A DNA stretch of 64,000 nucleotides from Bacillota bacterium (GTDB taxonomy: Bacteria > Bacillota > UBA994 > UBA5500). Below are positions 1-46,999 of the stretch, piece after piece (position 1 is the stretch's first letter; every line of letters begins with the position of its first letter). The stretch spans positions 257,600 to 321,599 of the forward strand of contig JBMNFA010000009.1 in assembly GCA_050949055.1 (NCBI GenBank). Reading direction: 5' to 3'. A program made the position numbers and the translations under genes. The notes beneath the pieces were generated by a model, which was not told the DNA's origin, ran no database searches, and worked only from the letters and a program-made list of their open reading frames with translations.

Positions 1-1553
1 TTGTGACCCTTCGGGATATTCTCTGTCGGTATCAGGCCCTGTCGCTCCCACTCATCCCACTTATCAGCCAGCGTCTGCTGGGCCTTGGTAAGCGCATCAA
101 GGTCAGCCTGATTTGGCGCACGGAAGAATCTCACCTTCTCTGTCTTAATCTGACCCGCCTTCTCGCCAGTCTTGTACCGCTGCGGCTTGCCGATCTTATC
201 AAGCTTGGGTTGAAAGCGAATTGCTACTACTGTATAAAGCCGATCCCGCCACGTTCCGTATTGGGATTCACCGCAGGCCTGGGCTTTGATTTCCTCAGCC
301 GAGATGGCTTGATGGCAATGCACACAGGAACCAACGCCACGGGTTACTGTGGCCAAGTTTGGGTCTTCCCCGTTAGGTCCCTTACCCCGTTTGACGCGGT
401 AAGGCTCAAACCACACCTTGCCGTTTTGGGGCCGGCCATCGGTGACTACGCGCACTCCCCAAGGGTCACTGCCTTTGGATAGCCAGCAAGTATTCAGCAA
501 TGGTGCTTCGCCGCCGCAATGGGGGCAGGTGACTTGGCGAACGTATATCAGACCTACCTGATCATGTTCTGGACCATTGAACAAAGGAATGACTTCTGGG
601 CAGCGCTTACAATGCGCCCGTAGCGCTAGCAGTTCTTCTGTTGGTAAGGGACTAAACGGCGTCACATCCTGCATTCTTTCTGCAACCGTTGTGACTAAGC
701 CCTGACCCCATCGGCTAATCTCCTCTGCAAGCTCGAGCCCAAACTGAAACGGATACTGGAGGGTAGCATGAAGAATGACACTCGCGACTGGGTTCAAGTC
801 ATTCGCTATCACATTGTGCCCAAGGCGCAATGCCTCAAATGGAATTGACCCGCCTCCCGCGGTTGGATCTAAAATCGTCAGCGACTTCGGGCTCACAGTC
901 GGGGCATGGCTATAAGCTCTTCCATAACCGTATAAGTCTTCTGCAGACCATCTCAGTTCCCCACCAAGTATTCTCTTGACCTCCGAAGACTTGGCAAACT
1001 CGATTCGACCATTAACGTGAGCAGGATCCGCGGCTACCCGCCCCACCTCAAGCCTAGTGCCCATATGCGGCAGAGGTTCATTAAAAGCCTTTGACTCCTC
1101 CAGCCACCTCACGACTACAGGATGGTTGGCTAACGAAGTATCTGTCTGACAAAGCTTATTGATGGTTCTCCGGTTAACCGCTCTGCGTTCTTGTTCTTTC
1201 AGTAGTGCCCTATGGACGGCCGCATCAACTATCAGGAGCTCCGCTCCATCATCAGCAGCCTCCACTTTTTCTGCCACTGAACCCACCAGCACCCACGGTA
1301 CATCCCCCACCATTGCCTCCACTTTCTCGATCCCTAGCTCCCTGAGGAAGAAATCGGGATCAGTGTCGGCTGGCAACAGGGATGCGAGGATTGCCGCTCG
1401 GCTGGGGGTCAGTGGCCGACGCGCCCACCAGACGTGCAATCGGTGCGTCGGTGGAGCTTTACCCGTGTCCCGTTCTCTTTGTGTTTCCGCTCCCACCTGA
1501 TGACAGGGAAACCCGGCTTCAATCAACCGCAAGTCGTTCTGTGGTTTGGTCAA
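1..1553 (-). CDS. DUF1156-family N6-adenine DNA methyltransferase with Zn-ribbon (partial: N-terminal ~517 codons; gene runs off the left edge)
   Basis: Minus-strand translation from TTG at 1551-1553 (SD GGAGGAG at 1558-1566) gives LIEAGFPCHQVGAETQRERDTGKAPPTHRLHVWWARRPL (DUF1156 hallmark), TILDPTAGGGSIPFEALRLGHNVIANDLNPVA (SAM-binding motif-I-like) and a CPHCGG zinc ribbon. Absent from the ORF track because no stop codon lies inside the window. Confidence 0.75.
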   Translation of the reverse strand, partial: MTKPQNDLRLIEAGFPCHQVGAETQRERDTGKAPPTHRLHVWWARRPLTPSRAAILASLLPADTDPDFFLRELGIEKVEAMVGDVPWVLVGSVAEKVEAADDGAELLIVDAAVHRALLKEQERRAVNRRTINKLCQTDTSLANHPVVVRWLEESKAFNEPLPHMGTRLEVGRVAADPAHVNGRIEFAKSSEVKRILGGELRWSAEDLYGYGRAYSHAPTVSPKSLTILDPTAGGGSIPFEALRLGHNVIANDLNPVASVILHATLQYPFQFGLELAEEISRWGQGLVTTVAERMQDVTPFSPLPTEELLALRAHCKRCPEVIPLFNGPEHDQVGLIYVRQVTCPHCGGEAPLLNTCWLSKGSDPWGVRVVTDGRPQNGKVWFEPYRVKRGKGPNGEDPNLATVTRGVGSCVHCHQAISAEEIKAQACGESQYGTWRDRLYTVVAIRFQPKLDKIGKPQRYKTGEKAGQIKTEKVRFFRAPNQADLDALTKAQQTLADKWDEWERQGLIPTENIPKGH

Positions 1554-1565
1554 TAATCTCTCCTC

Positions 1566-2174
1566 CTATTTGCGGAGTTTGGTCAGCATGCGTTGTATAG
1601 TCTTATCGCCAGGCTGGCCGCCCAACATGATACGCATGCCGGACCTGGCCCAACGACTGCCGGCGTCACCAAAGAGAACTGCTCTGGTCAGCCAATAGTG
1701 GGCTTCTTCCCGACTGAAGCGCTCTACCCGCCAGGCGATCAGCTCCACCCGATCCATATCTGCCACCCGCTCCTGCAACTTGAACAGCAGGGACAGCTTG
1801 GCACCAGCCTCATCATCCAAGGGCAGGTTGCCACGGAATTCTATACGGCCATTGCCCAGGAACTGCTGCAGCTCCAGCGGGATACCATCCTCATCGATGA
1901 TTCCGGAAACCATCTGCCTGAGCACTGGCAGGCAGCGTCGCAGCGATTGGCCATAGAGCAACCCTCTGTCTCTCAGGTAAGGCTTCTTTGCCTTCGTCTC
2001 TGACTGAAGTGTCTCATTGGGATTGCAGCGTTCCTTGACCACAAATACCGGGGATGGCTTATCTTTCAAGTCCGTAATGCGCAGAACCCATGGTGAATGG
2101 CTGCATAGCGCCTGCAATCGCCGAGCTAGGTTCTGCCTGTCTGTCAGTGTCTTATTGATTCCCTGCTTGTCCAT
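1566..2174 (-). CDS. hypothetical 202-aa protein between the methyltransferase and the ATPase (possible DUF3780-type accessory subunit)
   Basis: ORF track. Spacings of 13 nt and 12 nt to the flanking genes imply one translationally coupled operon. No catalytic motif recognised. Confidence 0.5.
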   Translation of the reverse strand: MDKQGINKTLTDRQNLARRLQALCSHSPWVLRITDLKDKPSPVFVVKERCNPNETLQSETKAKKPYLRDRGLLYGQSLRRCLPVLRQMVSGIIDEDGIPLELQQFLGNGRIEFRGNLPLDDEAGAKLSLLFKLQERVADMDRVELIAWRVERFSREEAHYWLTRAVLFGDAGSRWARSGMRIMLGGQPGDKTIQRMLTKLRK

Positions 2175-2187
2175 TGCCTTACCTCAC

Positions 2188-5100
2188 TCACTTGTTGTTA
2201 AGTTCTTTGATGAATTTGCAATCTTCTGCTGGATCGTCAATGGCCAGGAAAATGTCCGACTGTTCGTCTGGTTTGGCGACATTGACAAGTACCTCCAGCA
2301 ACTCACCCAGCGCCTGGATTGACTTGGGAGTTGCGTCGCTCAAGGTCAGCCGCAATCTACCACCTGCAGGTAGACCCAAGCCAGATAACTCCAGTTCATT
2401 GATTTGGGAGGAAGCACCGCGGCTGTAGATGCTGCCAAGACGCTTGAGCAGAGGCCACACTTTTTCCATTGCCTCAGGACCGGATAAGCGAACTCCCGGC
2501 CCGCCAGGAGAAGGCTGGTCAGGAGAAGGCTGGCCAGGAGGAAGTTGGCTAGTAGTAAGCCAACCTTTCTCTGCCACCTGTGCCCTGGTAATAAGCACAT
2601 CCTCTGGCTGCACTGTATAAATAGCAGCTGCTGCTCCTCCAACTAATGACTTAGGTTTTTCAGTTTGATCTGGAGTACCTTGATAGGCAAACAAGCTACC
2701 TTGCTGTAGCAAGCCGCCGACATTGTCCTGCCAGTCCTCAGCTGGAACTTCTCCATATTGCTCGGTCACTTGGTCCCGAACGCCCTCAGACGTTGAAGGG
2801 CCGGCACTGCCTAGGGTATAAAGTACCCTTTCCTGCAGCTTGGCTGGGTCAATTTTCTCTCCTTTTGTCCACCCTCTCTGCTTGGCTCCTTGGAGTGTGA
2901 TTAGAGAGTAGCCGCTGTTTAGCAAATCGGCGGAGAATGGCACCCCTGTGTCCTTATCGAAAAACTCGGCAGGTAGCGAACTGGCGGCGTCCCCCATCTT
3001 ATAGATGGCCCAGGTCCCCTTTTCTACCCCAGCTCGTAGCAGAGTGCCCAAAATCCTCGGACTCTCCAACACCGGCCAGTTGCGCATACAGACAAAGTTG
3101 CTGGCTAGCTTCTCAACTGTAACCGTATCGCCTTGAGCGAAGAAGTAGGTCTTCAGGTTGTTTAGGGTGGATTGGCCGGTATGCTGCGCGGTGAGCAGCT
3201 CACCATCCTCCAACAAGCCGCTCTTGATCGCCTCAATGAATGCCCGGCCAGATTCGCCAGAGGCGCTGCGGATCTCTCTGTAGACAATATGACCCGTGGT
3301 CGACGGGTAGTAAAGGCGACGATACGACTGTGCCACCAGCGTTTCCAAGCCCAATCCCTGCTGAGAGAAATGTTCGTGGACCTCCGCTTCTCGTAGGCGC
3401 CCCGGCGAGACGCCGTAAGTCTGCGGCTTGCTTTGTAACATCTGGATAGCGGACACATGCCGTGCGAAATCGAATAGGCGCTGCATAACCCTATCTGCCC
3501 CATTGGCATTCATGCCAGGAAGCTGCGCCTGCCCCATCTCCCCGGTTACTCGAACAGCATCCGGGGTCAGAAGAAAGACCAAATTCTGTTGCTCACGTGG
3601 TATGTTCGGGCCCTTGGTGGTAATCATTGCTTGTACGTCAACTGCCTCTGCCACTGGGCTAACAACAGCCAGAATAGGTCTGCCTTTTCCATCGGGTATG
3701 TGTTCCGGCAATGATACATCGTGCTCTATGTGGAAAAGGTCGGAGCGTTCAGCTATTACCTTTCGGGCAACGTCTGCCAACAGAGACTTGATCTGCTTGT
3801 CATTGACTGTGCGCCGTATGTGAGCCAGCACACTGTTAATGGTCGGTTCCTCGCTGGCAAAATACCGCCCCTGATCAGCGCGCAGATAAAAGGCACTACG
3901 TTTGATCTCTTCTAATGCAACCTGAACTTGGGCCGGAGTTAAGCCGGGCATGCTTACGGCTAATAGGCAGTCAGGTTCGTTTATGCCAAACAGATTTGAT
4001 CCCAGGCCTTGGGTGCGCCCCACCAAGCTGTGTAGAAATACCGTTTGCCAAGTGAATCTATAGAATGAATACCCTTCGGGGTGTGGATTCTCTTGATCAG
4101 CTCGCTCGGCGTTGCTTTGGCCCCCTTCCAAGCTTCCAGTATCGACGCCACCGACATCTGCGTTAAGCACAAACAGCAGATCCGAGCTTCCAGTGCGATT
4201 GAGGATCTCGTTGACCACCCGTTCCGACTTCAGCTCCAGATGGCTGGCGTGAATCATGGGGACAGCATGCTGGTTCTGCCAGAGACTGCGCACTGCTAAA
4301 GCCAACACACGCAGCACACCGCGGGTGCCCTGGAAATTCTCAGCGCCGGCTAATTTGTTATTCAAGAAATCCACCAACGTGGGATGGAAGGGGTAATTGG
4401 CCTGCAAGCGTTGACGATAGTTCTCGCTGCAGGCTTCTTGTGGCAAAAGGTTCTGGTTGCGCCGATATAACTCCATATATTCTGCTGCGGTCTCTTCGGC
4501 GGCCACACGGTCTATCAGTGAGAAGAGACGTTTGGCCAAGACTGCGGAGATCTCTCTGGCCTGTACCGGAGTAACCTGCACCGCATCGCGCGCCACCACA
4601 CTGCTGACATCCCGTATGGCGCGCTCCCCTAACCCAATCGCTTCTTCTGCCGAGATATCCTCGCCTCTCACAAGGCTAATCAACTTAGCCAAGCGATTCG
4701 TCTGCCGAGAGAATGCATCGGCGGCACTAGCTAGGGTGAGTATGATGGCGATTCCGCTATGAGTGCGGGCGTATCCATTCAACGACATCAGGAAAGCAGC
4801 CAGTTGACCGGCGCCATTTGGCCGCGCTGCTTCCAGACGGGCGGCATACTGCGCCAACTCGTCCAACATGATGATCACTTTGCGCCCTGTGAAGACGCGC
4901 TCGAAATAGGTTCGGCCTGGGGCAGCATATGACGTTGCTTCGCTTTCCACTGCGCGGTAAAGCTCTTCTCCTCCTACTTGGTAAGCGATCTCCCCCCACA
5001 AAGTGTAGGGAACTAAAGCATCGCCTTGCGGGCGATGTACGGGAATTTCGTCTCCCGGAACACCTGCCACTATTACTGAGCCAGGGTGCGGCAACAACTG

Positions 5101-5469
5101 CTCTGGAAGCAACTCATCGGTATACCCGGCCAACTTAGACCCTTGATAAGCAATGTGAGTACAAGCGATCAGTGTATGGGTCTTACCGCCACCAAACGCT
5201 GTCTCTAGGCGATGGATGGCCGGAGAGCCTGGATCACCTGCAATGCGACCAAACACTTCAGTCAGCGTTGTCCGAAGGCCCTGTGTAGGATAGGTGGCAT
5301 CGCGAAAGAACAGCTCCGCATCCGTGTAAATGCTATCAATGGGGGCCTTCCCCGAACGATAATACTGCAGGACTGGACCAAGTGATGCAGTAAAGACCTC
5401 GGGGTTAAAGGTACCCCGCAGAATCTCCTCACGCGGCATGCAGCTCTCAAGAACTGACCTCAAGTACAT
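2188..5469 (-). CDS. DUF499/BrxC-like large P-loop ATPase (1093 aa)
   Basis: ORF track. N-terminal Walker-A-like AFGGGKTHTL and Walker-B-like VIIMLDELAQY. Size and architecture are typical of the DUF499 ATPases that pair with DUF1156 methylases. SD AGGAGG precedes the ATG at 5467-5469. Confidence 0.7.
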   Translation of the reverse strand: MYLRSVLESCMPREEILRGTFNPEVFTASLGPVLQYYRSGKAPIDSIYTDAELFFRDATYPTQGLRTTLTEVFGRIAGDPGSPAIHRLETAFGGGKTHTLIACTHIAYQGSKLAGYTDELLPEQLLPHPGSVIVAGVPGDEIPVHRPQGDALVPYTLWGEIAYQVGGEELYRAVESEATSYAAPGRTYFERVFTGRKVIIMLDELAQYAARLEAARPNGAGQLAAFLMSLNGYARTHSGIAIILTLASAADAFSRQTNRLAKLISLVRGEDISAEEAIGLGERAIRDVSSVVARDAVQVTPVQAREISAVLAKRLFSLIDRVAAEETAAEYMELYRRNQNLLPQEACSENYRQRLQANYPFHPTLVDFLNNKLAGAENFQGTRGVLRVLALAVRSLWQNQHAVPMIHASHLELKSERVVNEILNRTGSSDLLFVLNADVGGVDTGSLEGGQSNAERADQENPHPEGYSFYRFTWQTVFLHSLVGRTQGLGSNLFGINEPDCLLAVSMPGLTPAQVQVALEEIKRSAFYLRADQGRYFASEEPTINSVLAHIRRTVNDKQIKSLLADVARKVIAERSDLFHIEHDVSLPEHIPDGKGRPILAVVSPVAEAVDVQAMITTKGPNIPREQQNLVFLLTPDAVRVTGEMGQAQLPGMNANGADRVMQRLFDFARHVSAIQMLQSKPQTYGVSPGRLREAEVHEHFSQQGLGLETLVAQSYRRLYYPSTTGHIVYREIRSASGESGRAFIEAIKSGLLEDGELLTAQHTGQSTLNNLKTYFFAQGDTVTVEKLASNFVCMRNWPVLESPRILGTLLRAGVEKGTWAIYKMGDAASSLPAEFFDKDTGVPFSADLLNSGYSLITLQGAKQRGWTKGEKIDPAKLQERVLYTLGSAGPSTSEGVRDQVTEQYGEVPAEDWQDNVGGLLQQGSLFAYQGTPDQTEKPKSLVGGAAAAIYTVQPEDVLITRAQVAEKGWLTTSQLPPGQPSPDQPSPGGPGVRLSGPEAMEKVWPLLKRLGSIYSRGASSQINELELSGLGLPAGGRLRLTLSDATPKSIQALGELLEVLVNVAKPDEQSDIFLAIDDPAEDCKFIKELNNK

Positions 5470-5620
5470 TCCCTCCTAAGAAGCTATTGCTTCGGTTTTC
5501 TAGCCGGTTTTCGACCGTATTAGACTCAGAACGATATTTTAGCTACTGGTATATGGAATTCCTGCGTTTGGAAGCAGTTGCTGTACCCAAGAAGCGCCTC
5601 GTATTTCGAGACGCCGACAT

Positions 5621-6004
5621 TTAGTCCATATTCCAGCCTGTGTACTCCGTGATTTGCTTGTCTTTCTTCATCCGGGCATATTCATCACGAATTTCCTCAA
5701 GAAGTAACTGCTCATTCTTCTCAGTGCGCGGATCAGGAACAACTATGATTGGCCCAAACCCGCTCCTGCCAAGAAACGACATCTGCCCATGTGGCCGCTG
5801 GTAGATAGAGAGCATGGCCTTGTCGACGCTCGGTTCATTTACCCATATGGCCACATCACATTCGAAATTAAAAGCCTCTCTTCCAACTTGGAAAGCTTTG
5901 TTAGTCAGATTGGAGCTTCCAATGACAGCTGCCTTCGGAACCTGATCCGCGAAAGCAATAGCTACTTTCGCATGCCAGTTTCCCTTGGGCGCTATGTACG
6001 GCAC
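5621..6004 (-). pseudogene. PLD-superfamily HKD nuclease remnant (127 aa, N-terminally truncated)
   Basis: HKD motif HAKVAIAFAD...VIGSSNLTNKA (HxK-x4-D-x6-GSxN) starts 10 residues after a GTG start. An in-frame stop lies only 16 codons upstream, so the N-terminal half of a Nuc-like fold is missing. Surrounding DNA is AT-richer. Confidence 0.45.
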
Positions 6005-6311
6005 GAATCTTGTGCTTGGCAGGTTTCGTGCTCTAAGTGTATCGCAGTTTATCTATCCCTTCTTTGGAGTGACACTGCAGCAGAATCAGCGGGAATGGTA
6101 TTATGCGAAGCTGGATGAACGCTTCCCTGGGTTGAAGATGAAGTATGTGCGACGGTATGGGAATGCCTATGAGTGCGTTTCACCACGGGCAAAGCAACTT
6201 TGGCGATTGTTCAGTGCTGAGTGCGACCGGCTGGGGTTGCTATATAAGATGGAGGATGTTATCCAGGCGTCGCGGAGGGGTTACCAGGCCAGGCAGTTGT
6301 CGTTCTTTTAA
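5985..6311 (+). other. possible orphan gene fragment (108-aa ORF with a protein-like C-terminal segment)
   Basis: ORF track. Low-complexity-free sequence (YYAKLDERFPGLKMKYVRRYGNAYECVSPRAKQLW) in a decayed AT-richer region. No SD, no recognised family. Confidence 0.2.
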
Positions 6312-6684: not shown

Positions 6685-7317
6685 CTATTCTCTCTCCGAT
6701 TGACAAAGGCTTCTTACGTTACCGCTGCACAGGAAGTGCATGTGTTGGCGGATCTTCTCTTCCGGCCAATTCCACCATTGAATCCTAAGCAAACTGGCAA
6801 CATCTTCGTCACTAAAACGCTTGCGAATTACTTTGGCCGGATTGCCGGCCACCATGGCATAGGGCTCAACATCTTTGGTAACGACTGCCCGGGCGCCGAT
6901 TACAGCACCGTCGCCGATGTGAACGCCGGGCATGACCATCGCTTCGGCACCGATCCAGACGTCATTCCCGATGACGGTGTTGCCCTTGCTGATATACCCA
7001 TCCCGGGTGTCGCCCCAGTTGTCTTCCGGAAAACCGTGAAAAGGAAAGGTAGAGGCCCAGTCAAAGCGATGCCCCTGATTCCCTGACATGACGAAGACAG
7101 CCCCGGTACCGATGGAGCAGAAACGCCCAATAATCAGCTTATCCTCGTACTCATTCTCTGGGTTCAGGCACCAAACGTTCTCCTCGAAGTGTTTGCCGTG
7201 ATAGTAGCCCGAGTAGTAGCTGTACTCTCCCACAATGATATGGGGATTGGTGATGTGTTCGCGAGCCGGGTAGCCCTGGAACGGACTGTGAAATGGGTTC
7301 GGTCGCACGGATGTCAC
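6685..7317 (-). CDS. vat: Vat-family streptogramin A O-acetyltransferase (xenobiotic acetyltransferase, hexapeptide repeat)
   Basis: [63 protein letters not shown] and [10 protein letters not shown] match Vat(A-H)/CatB-family signatures almost position for position. Confidence 0.88.
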
Positions 7318-7396
7318 TGCCTCTCTATTTATGATCGTCCTCGTCTCAAACCGAGAGTTGCCTGCTCAAGCGTCTCCATGAAGCTACGTTGCGTTC

Positions 7397-8344
7397 CTAG
7401 AGTGTCCGCAAGGCCTCGCTAATGATCCTCAGTTCGCGGTTAGTGCGAGCGCCGTAACCATCACCGGAACGGGCGAACCAGTCCAGCTCTAGGAGAGACC
7501 GGCAAATGCGGAGAATCTGCCAGGATTCACCCAGGCAGGCATAACGCCGTCTTGAGTCATCGGAAAGACGAGCCCAATATGCCTCACGCAGCGCTGCAAC
7601 ATCACCAAGCGGCTCATTCATCCGCAGGCTGGTGTCGACGAGCCCCACCAAGTCAAGCAATCCGGGACCGATGGCGGCTGTGGCCCAGTCTACCATTTGG
7701 ATCTGACCGCCAGTGATAAAGACGTTACCGCTATGGCTGTCACCGTGCAGCAAGGTGAGCGGATAACACTCCAACACCCCATGTATCGCGGACCAGTCCC
7801 AGAGCAGGCGTTCTTCAACATCGGCCAGCAACTCGTGCTCTACCCCGGTGAAGCAGCCGGAAGTCAGCTGCGCTCTTACCTGATCCCAAACTGTCCCAAC
7901 CAGACGACCTATCTCTGCTAGGACGTTTGGCAAGCCTGACGCCTGAGCAGCTAGACCCGAGCGGCCGCTCTGCTCATGGAAGTCAGCCAACGCCTCTGCT
8001 GCCGCTTGGTATTGCGCGGGATTCCTAGTCAGATAAAGTTGCTCACCTAGTGCCTGCTGAAGCAACAGCCAGGGCTCGCCGTCGATGACGCAGCAACTGG
8101 CAGGGGGTGCCGGAAAACCGGGCACCTGAGCTGCCAGCTGATAGACGGCTAATTCGCGAGCCAGCCCCTCCCGGGCCAGCTTGGCATAAAGTGTATGGTT
8201 GGCAGCGCCCGCTTTAGCCGTGATACGCAGAACACGGGAACTGGACCAGTCCCGGATTTCCTCTATGTCAGCGATCTCCACCGGCTCATGCAGCCAGGCA
8301 GCCACCGCTGCTTGCCACTCAACAATTAGGTCCATTTTGCTCAC
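7397..8344 (-). CDS. aminoglycoside/macrolide-phosphotransferase-family kinase (APH fold)
   Basis: Catalytic-loop motif LLHGDSHSGNVF (HGDxxxxN) and VDWATAAIGPGLLDL (D-x-x-G-D). Confidence 0.7.
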   Translation of the reverse strand: MSKMDLIVEWQAAVAAWLHEPVEIADIEEIRDWSSSRVLRITAKAGAANHTLYAKLAREGLARELAVYQLAAQVPGFPAPPASCCVIDGEPWLLLQQALGEQLYLTRNPAQYQAAAEALADFHEQSGRSGLAAQASGLPNVLAEIGRLVGTVWDQVRAQLTSGCFTGVEHELLADVEERLLWDWSAIHGVLECYPLTLLHGDSHSGNVFITGGQIQMVDWATAAIGPGLLDLVGLVDTSLRMNEPLGDVAALREAYWARLSDDSRRRYACLGESWQILRICRSLLELDWFARSGDGYGARTNRELRIISEALRTL

Positions 8345-8434
8345 CTCTCTTTACATCATCTTAAGCCGACGGTAGCGCGAACAAAAAGGGGGAACGGTCA
8401 GGACAGCTATTCTTGTTGAGTTAGTTAATTTATA

Positions 8435-8980
8435 TTATTCTCCAGCCTTGACCAGTTCAACGGCTTCCTTGCCAGAGATGTGCTCTATGTCGATGGCCAC
8501 TATGTGCGAACGTGTGCATCCGGCTACTGCCTTATGCTTGGCTTCTTCCGGCTGGTCCGCCGCATACTTCTCAATTAAAGCACTAAACGCCTCTACCCAT
8601 TCATCACCCTCTGCAATTCGAGCCTTGCCAAAGGCAATCACGCTGCGGAAGTAGGTGGTGTATTGCTCACTGACGATTTTGTCTTCATCCACTACCGAAA
8701 AGGAGGCCTTGGGGTTCTTGATGATGGCGTCAATCTTGTGTCCGGCCTTGGCTGAATGAAAATAGATCCTGCCATTCAGGTAGACGTAGCTGAGGGGGAC
8801 CGCATAGGGGTAGCCATTGTCACCCAGGCAAGCCAGGGTGCCATTGGTACATCTGTCCATCACAGCTCGGGTATCGTCGGCTGACAACAACTGCTTAGCT
8901 CGTCTCATTTCTCTGAACACCGCCTTATCCTCGCTTTCATCAGTTTGCCTGCCCGGCTGTTCGCAGCCCAGCGCGGACAT
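8435..8980 (-). CDS. pyridoxamine 5'-phosphate oxidase-like / Nim-family (5-nitroimidazole resistance-like) FMN-binding protein
   Basis: 181-aa split-barrel-like sequence (YPYAVPLSYVYLNGRIYFHSAKAGHKIDAI...) resembling Nim/PNPOx family members. Confidence 0.6.
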   Translation of the reverse strand: MSALGCEQPGRQTDESEDKAVFREMRRAKQLLSADDTRAVMDRCTNGTLACLGDNGYPYAVPLSYVYLNGRIYFHSAKAGHKIDAIIKNPKASFSVVDEDKIVSEQYTTYFRSVIAFGKARIAEGDEWVEAFSALIEKYAADQPEEAKHKAVAGCTRSHIVAIDIEHISGKEAVELVKAGE

Positions 8981-9199
8981 TTGCTCAAGCTATCCGTTAG
9001 GGGATGTATACTGCCAATGAGTGGTTCGGATTTCAGACTGCGAGCGCTATTGTCATCCTACCATGCATTCCTAGCATGGGTATCTACAGCTGTCTCAAAT
9101 GTATTACTGTGCAGAAACTGGGAGTAAGTCTTATTGCTGGTGATAACCCCTAAGACGCTATGATATAATTAACTAACATCATCGTAGAGGACTGAGGAA

Positions 9200-9865
9200 A
9201 TGAAGCTTTGTCCGGAATGCAAAAGCGATAGCCTGGCTAGAACATCATCTACGGGGCTGAGGGTAATCGTCTGTGTTGTGCTGTTGTTCATTCCCTATGG
9301 ATTTTTTTTCTGCTGGATACCGTTTATCCTTCCCCATTCATTTCGCTGCAACATCTGCGGGGCAGAGTTGAAGGCTCCCGATTTGCTAGATCTGGATTGG
9401 CGAGAACGGGATGTGCTGATGGAGCAACACCGATGGCTGGAGGCAAAGCTTAACCCCATGCTGGATCAGTGGGTGGCAGACCAGCAGGCTAACCTAGGCA
9501 AGATTGTGAAGAGCAAGGGGCAGTTCATGCTGTTGCAGGTGGCAAAAAAGGATGTAAGACCATTTAGGATAGTGGACTACACTGCTTTGGAACAGGCTGC
9601 CGAACTGGTGCTGAATGAGAAAGTCTCTGCAGAGTTCAAGATCTTTGACCTTCCACCGCTCTCGTACAGCCCCTACCGGGATAGGACTGGTCAGTCAGAC
9701 CGCCAGCAAAGGCGGTTGACAGAGTTAGGACGACAGTTGCTGACCGGGCGAGAGGTGGAACTGATCAGATCCGGCGAAGACGCTTTGCATGTGGCACTGA
9801 GCCAAGAACAGGGACTGCAACAGGTTAGGGTGAAGCGGGAACAGCCCGCCAGGTCAGAAATGTAG
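9200..9865 (+). CDS. hypothetical membrane-anchored protein with a split N-terminal zinc ribbon (CPEC...CNIC)
   Basis: ORF track. CxxC, a TM hairpin (VIVCVVLLFIPYGFFFCWIPFIL), then CxxC. AGGA SD and an AT-rich promoter-like region upstream. Confidence 0.4.
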   Translation: MKLCPECKSDSLARTSSTGLRVIVCVVLLFIPYGFFFCWIPFILPHSFRCNICGAELKAPDLLDLDWRERDVLMEQHRWLEAKLNPMLDQWVADQQANLGKIVKSKGQFMLLQVAKKDVRPFRIVDYTALEQAAELVLNEKVSAEFKIFDLPPLSYSPYRDRTGQSDRQQRRLTELGRQLLTGREVELIRSGEDALHVALSQEQGLQQVRVKREQPARSEM

Positions 9866-9924
9866 GTTTGGATCATCAGCGGTGCGGGAGGGAGCTTTCG
9901 CACCGCTGGCTGTTTGCCTGCTGG

Positions 9925-10458
9925 TTATCTTTGTTGGTCGCGATACCACTCTAGCGCCTTCCGTTCCACCTCTTTCACGAAGCTGTCCTTGCCCTCCATG
10001 TAGCCATAGATATCGTCGGGGAACTGCTGGGCCAGGCGGGCCTTCAGTTCGCCATATTCCCTGGCTGTGTCCGGGTGGGCGCGCAGGTAGTCCCTAAAGG
10101 CCAGGTGACGGTCAACTGTCTCGGGGTGATCCGCCTGAAAAGCATGCACGTGGTGGGTGCGGTGCTCGTTTCCACCCTTACGGAAGTAGCGCCGGCCGGG
10201 AATGCCACATTCGCCCATGGCTTCGTAGCCCAAGGCGGCCATCTGCTCGTTAAGTTGATCTACCTGGGTGATATCCCGGACCAACGGCATCATGTCTATG
10301 ATCGGTTTGGCCTGCAGTCCAGGCACGGAAGTGCTGCCGATGTGGTGGATGTCCACCAACAAGGGGCCAAAGACAGCCCGCAGCCGCTCCGCTTCCTGCT
10401 GGAACATTTCCGGCCATCTCTCGTCATATTCTACAACCACAATATTCCTCATACTCAT
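9925..10458 (-). CDS. grpB: GrpB-family (UPF0157) protein
   Basis: IVVVEYDERWPEMF...IHHIGSTSVPGLQAKPIIDMM...HHVHAF are GrpB hallmarks. Confidence 0.8.
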   Translation of the reverse strand: MSMRNIVVVEYDERWPEMFQQEAERLRAVFGPLLVDIHHIGSTSVPGLQAKPIIDMMPLVRDITQVDQLNEQMAALGYEAMGECGIPGRRYFRKGGNEHRTHHVHAFQADHPETVDRHLAFRDYLRAHPDTAREYGELKARLAQQFPDDIYGYMEGKDSFVKEVERKALEWYRDQQR

Positions 10459-10918: not shown

Positions 10919-11683
10919 TTAAGGTGCCACCACGCGGTTGGTCAGGGTACCCAGGCCCTCTATCTCTATCCGTATTTCATCGCCTACCTGCATGGGGCCG
11001 ATGCCGGAAGGTGTGCCGGTGAGGATGACATCGCCAGGGTGCAGGGTGATCACCTGCGAGACGAAGCTGACCAGCTGGGGAATGGTGAAGATCAGGTCGG
11101 AGGTGCTGCCGTCCTGCTTTACCTGACCGTTGAGTATAGCTTTCAGGCGCAGGTTGCTGGCGTCAATGCCGGTGACGATGCTCGGCCCCAGGGGACAGAA
11201 GGTGTCGAAGGACTTGGCGCGGGTCCACTGGCCGTCTTTGCCCTGCAGATCGCGGGCAGTGACGTCGTTGGCGATGGTATAGCCAAAGACATACTGCAGC
11301 GCATCTCTTGCATTCACCTGATGGCAGCGCTGGCCGACGACAATAGCCAACTCGGCCTCGTAGTCCAGCCGCCCCACCATCGGCCAATAGACGATGTCCC
11401 CTTGGTGCGGCAGCAGCGAGGTGTGGGGTTTGAGGAAGATAATTGGTTCGTTGGGCAGGTTCATGTCCAGCTCCATGGCGTGCCGACGGTAGTTCAGTCC
11501 CACACAGACGATGCTGCTGGGTTGGCAAGGGGTAAGCAGGGTGACGCTGTTCAGCGGGACAACCCGGTCGGTCAGTTGATGTTCGGAGAAGATGTCGCCC
11601 TGGATGACGGCAATCTGGTCGCCCTGCAGCAGCCCGTAGCAGGTGCTGCCGTCGAGGGAGAAGCGCACGTATTGTTTGGACAT
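10919..11683 (-). CDS. fumarylacetoacetate hydrolase (FAH) family hydratase/isomerase
   Basis: IVCVGLNYRRHA, KPHTSLL, DYEAELAIVVG, FGYTIANDVTARD, GDVILTGTPSGIGP. Confidence 0.88.
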   Translation of the reverse strand: MSKQYVRFSLDGSTCYGLLQGDQIAVIQGDIFSEHQLTDRVVPLNSVTLLTPCQPSSIVCVGLNYRRHAMELDMNLPNEPIIFLKPHTSLLPHQGDIVYWPMVGRLDYEAELAIVVGQRCHQVNARDALQYVFGYTIANDVTARDLQGKDGQWTRAKSFDTFCPLGPSIVTGIDASNLRLKAILNGQVKQDGSTSDLIFTIPQLVSFVSQVITLHPGDVILTGTPSGIGPMQVGDEIRIEIEGLGTLTNRVVAP

Positions 11684-39434: not shown

Positions 39435-39527
39435 TCGATATAAATGGCGGAGAGGGCGGGATTCGAACCCGCGATGCAACTTTCGCCGCATACTCGATTT
39501 CCAGTCGAGCGCCTTCGACCAGCTCAG
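39435..39527 (-). tRNA. tRNA-Ser (anticodon GGA), CCA encoded
   Basis: Folded by hand: 7-bp acceptor GGAGAGG/CCUCUCC, anticodon loop CUGGAAA, long variable arm, T-loop GGUUCGAAUCC, 3' GCCA. Confidence 0.85.
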
Positions 39528-39791
39528 CCACCTCTCCGTGTTTACGGGGTTGTTATGAGGCATTGGTCTCTCCTCAGAACCGTCACAAATCCATTCGATT
39601 TGGCACTTGCACGCTCAAACAGTATACCGCACAGGCACTGTCATGTCAATGTCCACTGTCTTCCACCAGGCGCGTTGCTTTATCAAACAGACAGCGTCTG
39701 CTGTTGTAGCTGCAGCTTCAGCGGTTTATAACTTGTGTCTTTAGTGTAAGTCCCATTTACGGGAGTATTCAAGTTTTTTTGGAAGCAGCTT

Positions 39792-45841: not shown

Positions 45842-45932
45842 TGGCGGAGAGAGAGAGATTCGAACTCTCGGAGCAGGGTCACTGCTCACCCGCTTTCGAG
45901 GCGGGCGCCTTAAACCACTCAGCCATCTCTCC
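45842..45932 (-). tRNA. tRNA-Ser (anticodon CGA), CCA encoded
   Basis: Acceptor GGAGAGA/UCUCUCC, anticodon loop CUCGAAA, long variable arm, GCCA end. Confidence 0.8.
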
Positions 45933-45933
45933 G

Positions 45934-46398
45934 CTAAGTGTTTTGACGCAGTTCCAGGAAAAACTTGCGCAGGAGCTGGCTGCTGGCATCCGCCAATACG
46001 TCAGGAATCACTTCCACCTGGTGGTTCAACCGTTGGTGTTGCACCAGGTTCAGCACACTGCCGCAAGCGCCTGCCTTGGGATCGGCTGCCGCATAAACCA
46101 AGGTAGGAATGCGGGCCAAAACGATGGCACCGGCGCACATGGCGCAGGGCTCCAGCGTGACGTAGAGGGTGCAACGGGTTAAGCGCCACCCACCCAGATG
46201 CTGATTGGCCAATCGAATGGCTAGCAACTCGGCGTGGGCCGTGGCATCGTGGGTCGTCTCGCGCAGGTTATGCGCTCTGGAGATGATCTCACCGTCGCGC
46301 ACGATCACCGCACCGATAGGCGTTTCACCAAGGGCGTAGGCTAACTTGGCCTCGTTCAGTGCCTCGCGCATGAAAAGCTTGTGTTGCTCCACGCGCAA
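45934..46398 (-). CDS. tadA: tRNA-specific adenosine(34) deaminase TadA
   Basis: HAELLAI...LYVTLEPCAMCAGAI (CDA zinc motif HAE...PCxxC), 154 aa. TTG start with AGAGGG SD. Confidence 0.88.
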   Translation of the reverse strand: MRVEQHKLFMREALNEAKLAYALGETPIGAVIVRDGEIISRAHNLRETTHDATAHAELLAIRLANQHLGGWRLTRCTLYVTLEPCAMCAGAIVLARIPTLVYAAADPKAGACGSVLNLVQHQRLNHQVEVIPDVLADASSQLLRKFFLELRQNT

Positions 46399-46498
46399 AA
46401 CCCCTCTTTCGCTGCCGAAATTCGTGCGCTACGCACAGACAGCTCTAATTCAAGTTGCAGAAGTGCCTATATGCAGACCATTGAAGGTTAACTGCCAG

Positions 46499-46574
46499 TG
46501 GTGCACCCGGAGGGAATCGAACCCCCGACACGCGGTTTAGGAAACCGCTGCTCTATCCCCTGAGCTACGGATGC
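46499..46574 (-). tRNA. tRNA-Arg (anticodon CCU)
   Basis: 76-nt cloverleaf, anticodon loop UUCCUAA, CCA encoded. Confidence 0.85.
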
Positions 46575-46661
46575 AAGCCATCAAAGAAAACAAAAAACAT
46601 TTGCCGCCCAGAAAAAGAAAAGCGAAACAAAAAGAACCGTCCCTTTTGTTTCAGTAAGGAG

Positions 46662-46738
46662 TGGCGCGCCCGGCAGGATTCGAACCTGCGACCACCGGAT
46701 TCGTAGTCCGTTACTCTATCCAGCTGAGCTACGAGCGC
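46662..46738 (-). tRNA. tRNA-Arg (anticodon ACG; the TadA substrate)
   Basis: 77-nt cloverleaf, anticodon loop CUACGAA, CCA encoded. Confidence 0.85.
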
Positions 46739-46746
46739 ATGAGAAA

Positions 46747-46841
46747 TGGCGGAGAGGGCGGGATTCGAACCCGCGACACAGGTTTAAGCCCGTGTAATCG
46801 CTTAGCAGGCGACCGCCTTCGACCTACTCGGCCACCTCTCC
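46747..46841 (-). tRNA. tRNA-Ser (anticodon GCU)
   Basis: 95 nt, long variable arm, anticodon loop CUGCUAA, GCCA end. Confidence 0.85.
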
Positions 46842-46910
46842 GCATCGCCTAACTATCATAGCACAGAATGGGGTTGCCTTCAACTGCAACCTTCTGGCAG
46901 CAGATAGTAA

Positions 46911-46999
46911 TGGCGGAGAGAGAGGGATTCGAACCCCCGGTCCCTTGCGGGATCACTAGTTTTCAAGACTAGCGCCATAAACCGCTCGGCCATCTCTCC
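46911..46999 (-). tRNA. tRNA-Ser (anticodon UGA)
   Basis: 89 nt, anticodon loop CUUGAAA, 7/5 acceptor/T arms so not tRNA-Sec, GCCA end. Confidence 0.85.

Follow-up and report, generated by a model that had tools for sequence, protein, structure and literature searches.

A four-gene DUF499/DUF7680/DUF1156/PLD-helicase operon from a Bacillota bacterium, likely related to the MANTIS (Gao_RL) anti-phage systems

Which type of system is encoded by the three minus-strand genes found at the left edge of the window, a 64,000-nucleotide stretch of DNA from a Bacillota bacterium? The initial annotation took them for a BREX-related defence operon, truncated by the edge, with a DUF1156 methylase, a small ORF and a DUF499 ATPase. 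The three ORFs are present where it placed them and as it described them, and its core reading is supported. The operon is real and intact and is a variant of a known sort of system. By analogy, it is likely a restriction-like anti-phage system related to MANTIS (Gao_RL) and working in a MANTIS-like way, DUF7680 replacing MtsB/DUF3780. MANTIS/Gao_RL (Gao_29) is BREX-related (BR) type 2: MtsA, DUF499; MtsB, DUF3780; MtsC, DUF1156 methylase; MtsD, PLD-helicase. The DUF1156/DUF499 pairing was previously given as far less characterised; this no longer holds, since the sister clade has now been classified as BREX-related type 2 (PMC12839542) and mechanistically dissected as MANTIS (bioRxiv 10.64898/2026.09.23.753747).

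The window includes three of the four genes of the operon, all on the minus strand: an MtsA-like DUF499 AAA+ ATPase (2188..5469, 1093 aa, assigned from Pfam and motifs), a small basic protein assigned by Pfam to the DUF7680 family (1566..2174, 202 aa, pI 9.9) and an MtsC-like N6-adenine DNA methyltransferase (1..1553, first 517 of 1082 codons, the rest being cut by the window edge). The intergenic spacings are 13 nt and 12 nt. The 5' leader of the ATPase gene (5470..5620, minus strand) contains a GGAGG ribosome-binding site; on the operon strand, a consensus scan of this leader detected nothing like a sigma-70 promoter. The GC content of the operon is lower than that of the adjacent chromosome. 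The leftward extension called for by the initial annotation is provided by a metagenome contig, L001, which matches the window sequence with 1 mismatch in 7380 bp. It supplies the full 1082-aa methylase and the fourth, off-window gene, which encodes a 1283-aa PLD(HKD)-nuclease/SNF2-helicase fusion (L001 9100-12951); the four genes together span L001 1912-12951. Helicase, kinase or nuclease partners had been suggested as possible on the missing side: helicase and nuclease are found as this fusion, and the kinase is absent.

The ATPase, previously described as a 1093-aa DUF499-type P-loop ATPase, matches Pfam DUF499 (3.9e-28) and ends in a DUF7744 domain (1.2e-34; aa 994-1091, 2197-2490). Walker A (GGGKT, aa 93-97, 5179-5193) and Walker B (IIMLDE, aa 199-204, 4858-4875) are both intact, as in a DUF499 ATPase of the ORC/Cdc6-type AAA+ class, and were found to align with those of all BR ATPases. 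A GGAGG Shine-Dalgarno sequence lies ahead of the start ATG; public gene calls place the start 10 codons downstream of that of the 1093-aa protein. More than 100 full-length homologues share 53-62% identity with it. The PADLOC match is HmaC (4.6e-78, spanning 3-818), and the score with NCBIfam DUF499_antiphage is 158 bits for a cut-off of 1200. The PDB sequence search gave nothing meaningful: a match to an enoyl-CoA hydratase (E 0.006) is at chance level.

The methylase starts at TTG 1553, 8 nt downstream of a GGAGG, and its frame runs off base 1. It had been annotated as a Zn-ribbon adenine methylase carrying HVWWARRPL and truncated at the edge, which is borne out: HVWWARRPL is found at aa 40-48, including the DUF1156 motif WWARRP (aa 42-47, 1413-1430), and the windowed part matches Pfam DUF1156 (2.7e-16). 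This part contains three CxxC pairs. The Zn ribbon corresponds to four cysteines (C343/C346/C410/C413) inside the TRD (315-527). AdoMet motif I (DPTAGGG, aa 229-235, 849-869) precedes the TRD, and the catalytic DPPY (aa 678-681) lies off-window, on L001. The protein thus has the features of an N6-adenine methylase (DUF1156 N-terminus, TRD inserted after motif I, DPPY), and the order motif I, TRD, DPPY is that of the alpha group, which MtsC also shows (bioRxiv 10.64898/2026.09.23.753747). PADLOC HmaB matches the windowed part at 1.6e-22 and the full L001 protein at 2e-69. The full protein scores 218 bits with NCBIfam DUF1156_antiphage (cut-off, 1000). No meaningful match was found in the PDB by sequence search.

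The fourth protein carries the Pfam domains SNF2-rel_dom and Helicase_C, i.e. a Swi2/Snf2 helicase is encoded in the locus, and its helicase motifs are intact (GLGKT, DEAH, QRIGRIDRIGQ). Its alignment with the NCBIfam model phospholipD_antiphage, the equivalog for MtsD, runs end to end (1.4e-97; 33-921 versus 13-828 of 895), with 328 bits for a cut-off of 1100; the control L035 helicase obtains 1179 for the same cut-off. The PADLOC match is PLD_Helicase (4.1e-66). Pfam PLDc_2 matches below threshold (0.0095). H162-x-K164...GSGTLNES aligns with the HxK...GSxN PLD motif that is common to canonical MtsD-like proteins and missing in Hma helicases. The N-terminal 290 aa match type-2 N-termini (E 7e-8 to 8e-6) and no type-1 protein; an N-terminal HKD/PLD endonuclease replaces the TUDOR domain, as in type 2. 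The 340-aa C-terminal extension has no relatives detectable outside its own subclade, and nothing in Pfam matches the C-terminal 333 aa. For residues 940-1283, no similarity to type-1 helicases and no PD-(D/E)xK domain were detectable at the sequence level.

The locus resembles MANTIS in having four tightly coupled genes in the order ATPase, small protein, methylase, helicase-nuclease, which is that of three canonical MANTIS loci (L035-L037) annotated as anti-phage by NCBI. It also shares with MANTIS a DUF499 AAA+ ATPase with both Walker motifs, an alpha-group DUF1156 methylase with a central TRD and DPPY, an SF2/SNF2 helicase with an N-terminal single-HKD PLD nuclease that aligns over the whole MtsD equivalog model, and a small basic alpha+beta protein with an EE..WW/YW motif between ATPase and methylase. 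However, the components are only 18-23% identical to the canonical proteins, and the scores fall short of all three NCBIfam equivalog cut-offs by 3- to 8-fold. The stand-alone DUF3780 MtsB found in 98% of type-2 taxa is absent, DUF7680 being in its place. The methylase carries the four-cysteine Zn ribbon and WWARRP, whereas canonical MtsC lacks the ribbon and shows YWKGRKP instead. The helicase C-terminal region (340 aa) is extra, the ATPase ends in DUF7744, and there is no MtsR (Arc/CopG) gene upstream.

Seven other Bacillota/Deltaproteobacteria loci carry all four genes as a module conserved at 55-73% identity. Comparison of the flanks showed no shared ORF for 27 of the 28 locus pairs, so the module behaves as a mobile cassette; its sites differ, are non-syntenic and include plasmids. 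A non-defence role at a position conserved in related genomes, given by the initial annotation as what would count against its reading, was not seen, and a housekeeping role at a conserved position was rejected because the flanks differ. The four genes are always co-inherited in the Bacillota clade. In each of the three protein trees, DUF7680-bearing systems branch as a clade of their own; they are found in Bacillota, cyanobacteria, Actinomycetota, Alphaproteobacteria and Bacteroidota; the family includes about 700 clusters at 90% identity from five phyla and plasmids. The relatives include Moorella, Desulfofundulus and Kyrpidia, genera that contain thermophiles. The accession numbers and genus names of the PMC12839542 supplement gave no classification of the DUF7680 lineage.

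The neighbours on the window side are a hexapeptide acyltransferase, an APH-family kinase, a PNPOx-like protein and GrpB. They had been called resistance-like, which stands in so far as they are metabolic or resistance-like, but none is a defence gene. The 'nuclease remnant' reported beside the operon is present but weak: a 127-aa ORF (6004..5621) with HxK...GSSN and sub-threshold PLD matches beginning mid-profile. On L001, the helicase gene is followed by two unannotated ORFs without Pfam or PADLOC match and then by an ORF with an SLH domain. No defence-associated Pfam domain was found in the flanking genes, and the PLD-nuclease fragment alone adjoins the operon. The defence island proposed earlier is rejected, the neighbours being metabolic or resistance-like.

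The 202-aa protein matches Pfam DUF7680 (9.9e-35) and not DUF3780, the family previously suggested for it, even at E<=10; the positive controls L035-L037 match DUF3780 at 1e-54 to 1e-80. EExxYW, invariant across the DUF7680 family, is found at aa 156-161 (1692-1709), and the gene directly follows the ATPase gene in every one of 20+ loci. The AF2 model (pLDDT 86.7) consists of a four-stranded sheet and five helices. When the DUF7680 and DUF3780 profiles were compared by hhalign (E=0.016), the score exceeded those of all 120 block shuffles and was reached by 4 of 120 column shuffles. The alignment pairs invariant residues of the two families (DUF7680/DUF3780: G124/G124, EE/EE, YW/WW, R/R, G/G). 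DUF7680 and MtsB/DUF3780 have a common operon position, a similar size and a common order of secondary-structure elements; only this order was used, the AF2 model of DUF3780 being poor (pLDDT 56.8). In MtsB, the W159-E156 pair is a contact at the dimer interface (bioRxiv 10.64898/2026.09.23.753747). An ASCH-DUF7680 fusion exists, in parallel with the known ASCH/RAMA-DUF3780 fusions (PMC12839542). No DUF3780 protein was found among the checked matches of a profile search of 1.84 billion representatives. PDB sequence searches gave matches at E>0.5 only for the DUF7680 protein and none for MtsB-type and MtsD-type sequences. No paper mentioning DUF7680, DUF7744, PF24728 or PF24897 was found in a literature search. 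As judged from sequence, homology between DUF7680 and DUF3780 is marginal; DUF7680 is probably homologous to MtsB, but very remotely.

DUF7680 could instead be unrelated to MtsB, e.g. a regulator that binds DNA or a reader of modifications, independently recruited to the same operon position. This appears unlikely; were it the case, the self-marking logic would differ from that of MANTIS. Another reading would be an Hma-like system (BREX-related type 1), in which the helicase-nuclease would be the sole effector, without methylase-directed targeting, and the three other proteins would be accessory or independent. The best PADLOC models for the ATPase and the methylase are indeed HmaC and HmaB, which score above the type-2 models, both proteins group nearer type-1 proteins in NJ trees, and the methylase Zn ribbon and WWARRP are shared with type 1, which belongs to the same superfamily of DUF499-centred systems. 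Moreover, in Halomonas, protection against T4 was obtained with HmaA alone, and 15-20% of loci lacked HmaB/HmaC (PMC11232893). However, Hma loci have three genes in the reverse order (hmaABC, helicase first; L030, L031, L041) and no small subunit. Their helicase lacks the N-terminal PLD and has a C-terminal PD-(D/E)xK nuclease; here, the PLD replaces the type-1 N-terminus and no such C-terminal domain was detectable. Many HmaC have an N-terminal HEPN domain (L038, L041), which is lacking in this ATPase. The tight coupling and constant co-inheritance of the four genes also argue against independent components. Hma sensu stricto is rejected (wrong helicase architecture, wrong gene order, one extra gene), and an Hma-like working is rather improbable.

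Still less expected is a BREX-like exclusion that would block phage replication without DNA cutting, or a non-defence epigenetic or chromatin-remodelling module; either is very improbable. The DUF499 ATPase is a BrxC relative, the initial annotation linked the locus to BREX, and RapA and other non-nucleolytic remodellers belong to the SNF2 proteins. The likeness extends to BREX type 3/BR type 3, whose PglXI/BrxXI and BrxHII are resembled by the methylase and the SNF2 helicase, respectively. However, the 15-kb locus lacks PglZ, BrxA/B, BrxL and BrxF; neither PglZ nor BrxA/BrxB (iSTAND) was found in the 15.2-kb L001 locus or at 5.5-14 kb of the window. The effector is a nuclease fusion whose PLD domain retains an intact catalytic HxK motif, and the non-syntenic sites and plasmids argue against housekeeping. 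BREX proper is rejected (no kinase or PglZ, BrxA or BrxB). The combination of a PLD nuclease and an SF2 motor in the effector recalls SauUSI, a likeness taken from the structural comparison of the preprint (bioRxiv 10.64898/2026.09.23.753747). SauUSI, however, is autonomous and targets modified DNA, whereas the effector encoded here is predicted to depend on the methylase/ATPase complex and to target unmodified DNA.

A relative of MANTIS thus remains the preferred reading, and the MANTIS/Gao_RL gene order and domain content make a MANTIS-like mechanism likely. In MANTIS, asymmetric 6-bp sites are hemimethylated, which needs MtsA, MtsB and MtsC, and restriction depends on the full set of four proteins, with inverted sites favouring it (bioRxiv 10.64898/2026.09.23.753747); MtsD cleavage is still without in vitro reconstitution. 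Genes, gene order, intact catalytic motifs, family relationships and mobility are observed directly for the present locus, and we infer all biochemical steps by analogy. The AAA+ ATPase would load a monomeric alpha-group methylase on short asymmetric recognition sites. The DUF7680 protein, probably a dimer formed through the EExxYW helix, would stimulate methyl transfer. ATP hydrolysis would recycle the complex, leaving host sites N6-adenine hemimethylated and self DNA marked. Where incoming phage or plasmid DNA carries such sites unmethylated, the same recognition complex would bind them and recruit a dimeric helicase-nuclease, in which two single-HKD domains would form one PLD active site. 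This effector would then translocate with ATP and cut the foreign DNA. Since the Zn ribbon is kept and Hma models score better than type-2 models, loading and recognition could differ from those of MANTIS.

Understanding of two-ATPase methylation defences (BREX, its relatives and MANTIS) is only now emerging, and the role of MtsB is explicitly unresolved. The DUF7680 lineage is a widespread, unnamed sister lineage with the MANTIS architecture, another small-subunit family and a more Hma-like methylase. Automated annotation labels such loci Hma or leaves the small gene without label. Residues apparently common to both small-subunit families (EE..[YW]W, G, R..LG) suggest themselves for mutagenesis. 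The thermophilic Bacillota members could yield sturdier proteins with which to capture the transient loading complex, and stable complexes of the kind so far unobtained with MANTIS. DUF7680 operons might even constitute a fourth, undescribed DUF499-centred BREX-related subtype with a self/non-self logic unlike that of MANTIS, a tentative proposal that we hold somewhat less probable than its opposite. Such a subtype would join a type-1-like ATPase and Zn-ribbon methylase to a type-2-like PLD-helicase; its small subunit would be non-homologous to MtsB or diverged past profile detection, and its site recognition, loading or reader function (at which the ASCH fusions hint) would differ from MANTIS. 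For the host genome, the operon is an ordinary accessory defence cassette.

Three closely spaced genes are found on the minus strand between positions 1 and 5469 of the window: a DUF499 ATPase gene (5469..2188, 1093 aa), a small-protein gene (2174..1566, 202 aa) and a DUF1156 methylase gene, which starts with TTG at 1553 and runs off base 1 after its first 517 codons. They are separated by 13 and 12 nt; the ATPase ATG lies 5-6 nt 3′ of a GGAGG Shine-Dalgarno sequence, and GGAGG is found 8 nt upstream of the methylase TTG. Pfam matches are DUF499 (3.9e-28) and a C-terminal DUF7744 (1.2e-34) for the ATPase, DUF1156 (2.7e-16) for the methylase portion in the window and DUF7680 (9.9e-35) for the 202-aa protein. 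The PADLOC models HmaC (4.6e-78) and HmaB (1.6e-22) match the window proteins; none matches the 202-aa protein. As the ORFs are present and the Pfam and PADLOC assignments are as given, the operon described in the initial annotation is confirmed. The DUF3780 profile proposed there as a check gives no match to the small protein even at E<=10: its family is DUF7680.

The initial annotation had taken the operon to be cut by the window edge, with possible helicase, kinase or nuclease partners beyond it; the missing part is supplied by the JGI metagenome contig Ga0591959_0004380 (L001). This contig carries a 100% identical ATPase homologue; its overlap with the window spans 7380 bp (1 mismatch), and it reaches 7813 bp further left. 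It encodes the complete methylase (1082 aa) and, after a 23-nt gap, a 1283-aa protein with SNF2 and Helicase_C domains. The top NCBIfam match of this fourth protein is phospholipD_antiphage, the NCBI model for the Gao_RL/MANTIS nuclease-helicase (E=1.4e-97; 33-921 aligned end to end with 13-828 of 895); its top PADLOC match is PLD_Helicase (4.1e-66). Residues 940-1283 (L001 11917-12951) form a 340-aa C-terminal extension restricted to a Bacillota/Deltaproteobacteria subclade, with no Pfam match and no similarity to helicases of BREX-related (BR) types 1 or 2. Beyond the fourth gene are found opposite-strand genes or genes without detectable relatives, then an SLH-domain protein; two unannotated ORFs of this region have no PADLOC match.

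All catalytic motifs checked in the ATPase, methylase and helicase-nuclease are intact. The ATPase has GGGKT as Walker A (aa 93-97) and IIMLDE as Walker B (aa 199-204). The methylase combines HVWWARRPL with DPTAGGG as motif I (aa 229-235) and DPPY (aa 678-681), in the alpha-group order, and has a 4-Cys Zn ribbon (C343, C346, C410, C413) in the central TRD. Helicase-nuclease: a single PLD motif, H162-E-K164...GSGTLNES, together with GLGKT, DEAH and QRIGRIDRIGQ. One HKD motif per chain would imply that two chains together make one nuclease active site, according to what is known of the PLD family and to the MtsD dimer structure (bioRxiv 10.64898/2026.09.23.753747). Among Bacillota orthologues, the N-terminal AAA+ half of the ATPase is conserved (mean pairwise identity 0.65-0.85) and its C-terminal half varies (0.27-0.6); in the methylase, variation is greatest at aa 81-200 and 281-320. 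This pattern is compatible with fast-evolving recognition modules, seven sequences being too few to assign specificity.

BR type 1 (Hma) comprises three genes, with a C-terminal PD-(D/E)xK nuclease on the helicase; type 2 comprises four, with an HKD nuclease at the helicase N-terminus and, in 98% of taxa, a stand-alone DUF3780 protein; type 3 has PglZ and iSTAND and no nuclease fusion (PMC12839542). HmaA alone protects against T4 (PMC11232893). Type 2, Gao_RL, has been renamed MANTIS: the AAA+ protein MtsA loads the methylase MtsC onto asymmetric 6-bp sites, with MtsB stimulating methylation and ATP hydrolysis driving turnover; restriction requires all four proteins and both ATPases and peaks on inverted site pairs (bioRxiv 10.64898/2026.09.23.753747).

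Membership of canonical MANTIS was considered for the locus and rejected. The comparison included three canonical references annotated by NCBI as anti-phage DUF499/DUF3780/DUF1156/PLD-helicase (L035-L037), type-1 references (L030, L031, L038, L041) and DUF7680-type loci from Bacillota (L002, L007-L012), cyanobacteria (L016-L026), a Sphingobacterium MAG (L032) and plasmids of Sinorhizobium, Nostoc and Rhodococcus (L033, L034, L040). In each neighbour-joining tree (ATPase, methylase, helicase; distance trees, indicative and without support values), DUF7680-bearing systems form one clade, separate from type 1 and canonical type 2. For the proteins of the present locus, identities to canonical type 2 and to type 1 are respectively 18-19% and 20-22% (ATPase), 21-22% and 25-28% (methylase), and 22-23% and 24-26% (helicase). 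The lineage is mosaic in its features: the genes follow one another as in type 2 (ATPase, small protein, methylase, helicase) and the N-terminal PLD domain of the helicase is type-2-like, whereas the methylase WWARRP and 4-Cys Zn ribbon, changed or absent in canonical MtsC-like proteins, are type-1-like. The ATPase and methylase score higher on Hma HMMs, and the scores fall far short of all three NCBIfam equivalog cut-offs. The mosaic features and the missed cut-offs argue for a distinct BR-family variant rather than canonical MANTIS, most likely one that functions like it.

DUF7680 includes 694 clusters at 90% identity (E<=0.001); a set of 1.84 billion proteins contains 177 of its representatives at 50% identity. 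Bacillota members (~200 aa) have an extra N-terminal helix and an insertion; cyanobacterial and proteobacterial ones (142-168 aa) have the core only. Over this whole range, invariance is limited to L31, G75, L119, F131, E156, E157, Y160 and W161. Speaking against homology with DUF3780, HMMER profile searches never link the two families: among 31 weak or long matches checked in the DUF7680 search, 30 belong to DUF7680 and not one to DUF3780. An hhalign comparison of DUF7680 (A3) with DUF3780 (A2) gives a single alignment of 75 columns (E=0.016). None of the 120 block-shuffled controls (mean 14.4, sd 2.5, max 21.7) reaches its score of 22.45, nor does the reversed control (17.2); 4 of 120 single-column shuffles do. 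In this alignment the invariant residues of the two families coincide: G124 with G124, E156-E157 with E155-E156, Y160-W161 with W158-W159, R181 with R183 and G185 with G187. In MtsB, a dimer without structural homologues whose role is unclear, W159-E156 is one of three reciprocal hydrogen-bond pairs at the interface (bioRxiv 10.64898/2026.09.23.753747). The AF2 model of DUF7680, a confident one (pLDDT 86.7, pTM 0.84), packs a four-stranded sheet against five main helices, as described for the DUF3780 fold (PMC12839542); the AF2 model of DUF3780 is poor (pLDDT 56.8) and has the same element order, EEE-H-loop-HHHH. DUF7680 is rather likely to be remotely homologous and functionally equivalent to MtsB. 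One protein from the representative search (P0506, 340 aa) has an ASCH domain fused to DUF7680; ASCH fusions, of the modified-base 'reader' type, are reported for DUF3780 (PMC12839542).

Seven other complete loci have the four-gene module, conserved at 55-73% identity; in 27 of 28 locus pairs, the flanks have no ORF in common. In Moorella thermoacetica it lies between arginase and truD; here, one flank carries a PLD-nuclease fragment and accessory enzyme genes, the other unannotated ORFs and the SLH-domain ORF. DUF7680-type systems are also found on conjugative plasmids. For the operon and the genes next to it, GC content is 50-57%, vs 58-63% deeper in the window. The module shows the pattern of a horizontally mobile defence cassette, and so departs from a gene set kept at one position in all relatives as part of a non-defence pathway.

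The defence-island surroundings proposed initially are not borne out: Pfam gives no defence-related domain in any neighbour, the window-side ones having been scanned with Pfam and the two unannotated ORFs beyond the helicase gene with PADLOC as well. A 127-aa ORF (5621-6004, minus strand) directly upstream of the ATPase gene on the same strand carries the PLD signature WHAKVAIAFAD...IGSSNLT; its sub-threshold Pfam matches (RE_NgoFVII, 0.0011; PLDc_2, 0.0031) start at profile position ~81-86, and it is probably a 5′-truncated PLD-family restriction nuclease fragment. A 108-aa ORF (5985-6311, plus strand), without Pfam match, overlaps the start of this fragment; it seems to be a further gene remnant within the decayed 1.2 kb that separate the operon from the hexapeptide transferase gene. 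The genes at 6685-10458 (hexapeptide acyltransferase, APH-family phosphotransferase, PNPOx-like flavoprotein, GrpB) are resistance-like, not defence genes. Five minus-strand tRNA genes are clustered at 45842-46999 (Ser-CGA, Arg-CCT, Arg-ACG, Ser-GCT, Ser-TGA), and a separate one is found at 39445-39537 (Ser-GGA).

Several loci vary in organisation. In a Limnochordia MAG (L009 12418-15647), two overlapping ORFs take the place of the orthologous methylase gene, owing either to a frameshift that makes it a pseudogene or to an assembly error; a real split would leave the nuclease-helicase without its methylase. In cyanobacterial DUF7680-type loci (L016-L024, L034), inserts of ~0.5-4.5 kb separate core genes. 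In L016-L024 they lie between the genes for DUF7680, the methylase and the helicase; in L034 (Nostoc plasmid, 11001-11644) the insert is a VapBC toxin-antitoxin pair. These inserts recall Hma, which is reported to behave as an 'insertion hotspot'. The methylase and helicase genes are inverted in L020 and L025. A different BR-like order is found on the Klebsiella pneumoniae IncF plasmid pZZ40-KPC (L039 1437-14000), with similar matches on ~28 Klebsiella plasmids: short DUF499 (705 aa), hypothetical, SIR2, ATP-binding protein, DUF1156, 166-aa hypothetical, SNF2. It falls outside all other clades in the neighbour-joining trees.

The initial interpretation, a BREX-related defence operon, is essentially right. 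The locus is predicted to encode a methylation-dependent restriction system of the BREX-related family, intact, mobile and made of four components, with the MANTIS architecture and apparently of a separate, undescribed DUF7680 lineage; a MANTIS-like mechanism is quite probable by analogy. Its interest is only moderate, because this kind of system is already known and a sister clade, MANTIS, has recently been dissected. Some relatives belong to genera that contain thermophiles. Together with the divergent DUF7680 subunit, these relatives provide a useful handle on the unsettled role of MtsB.
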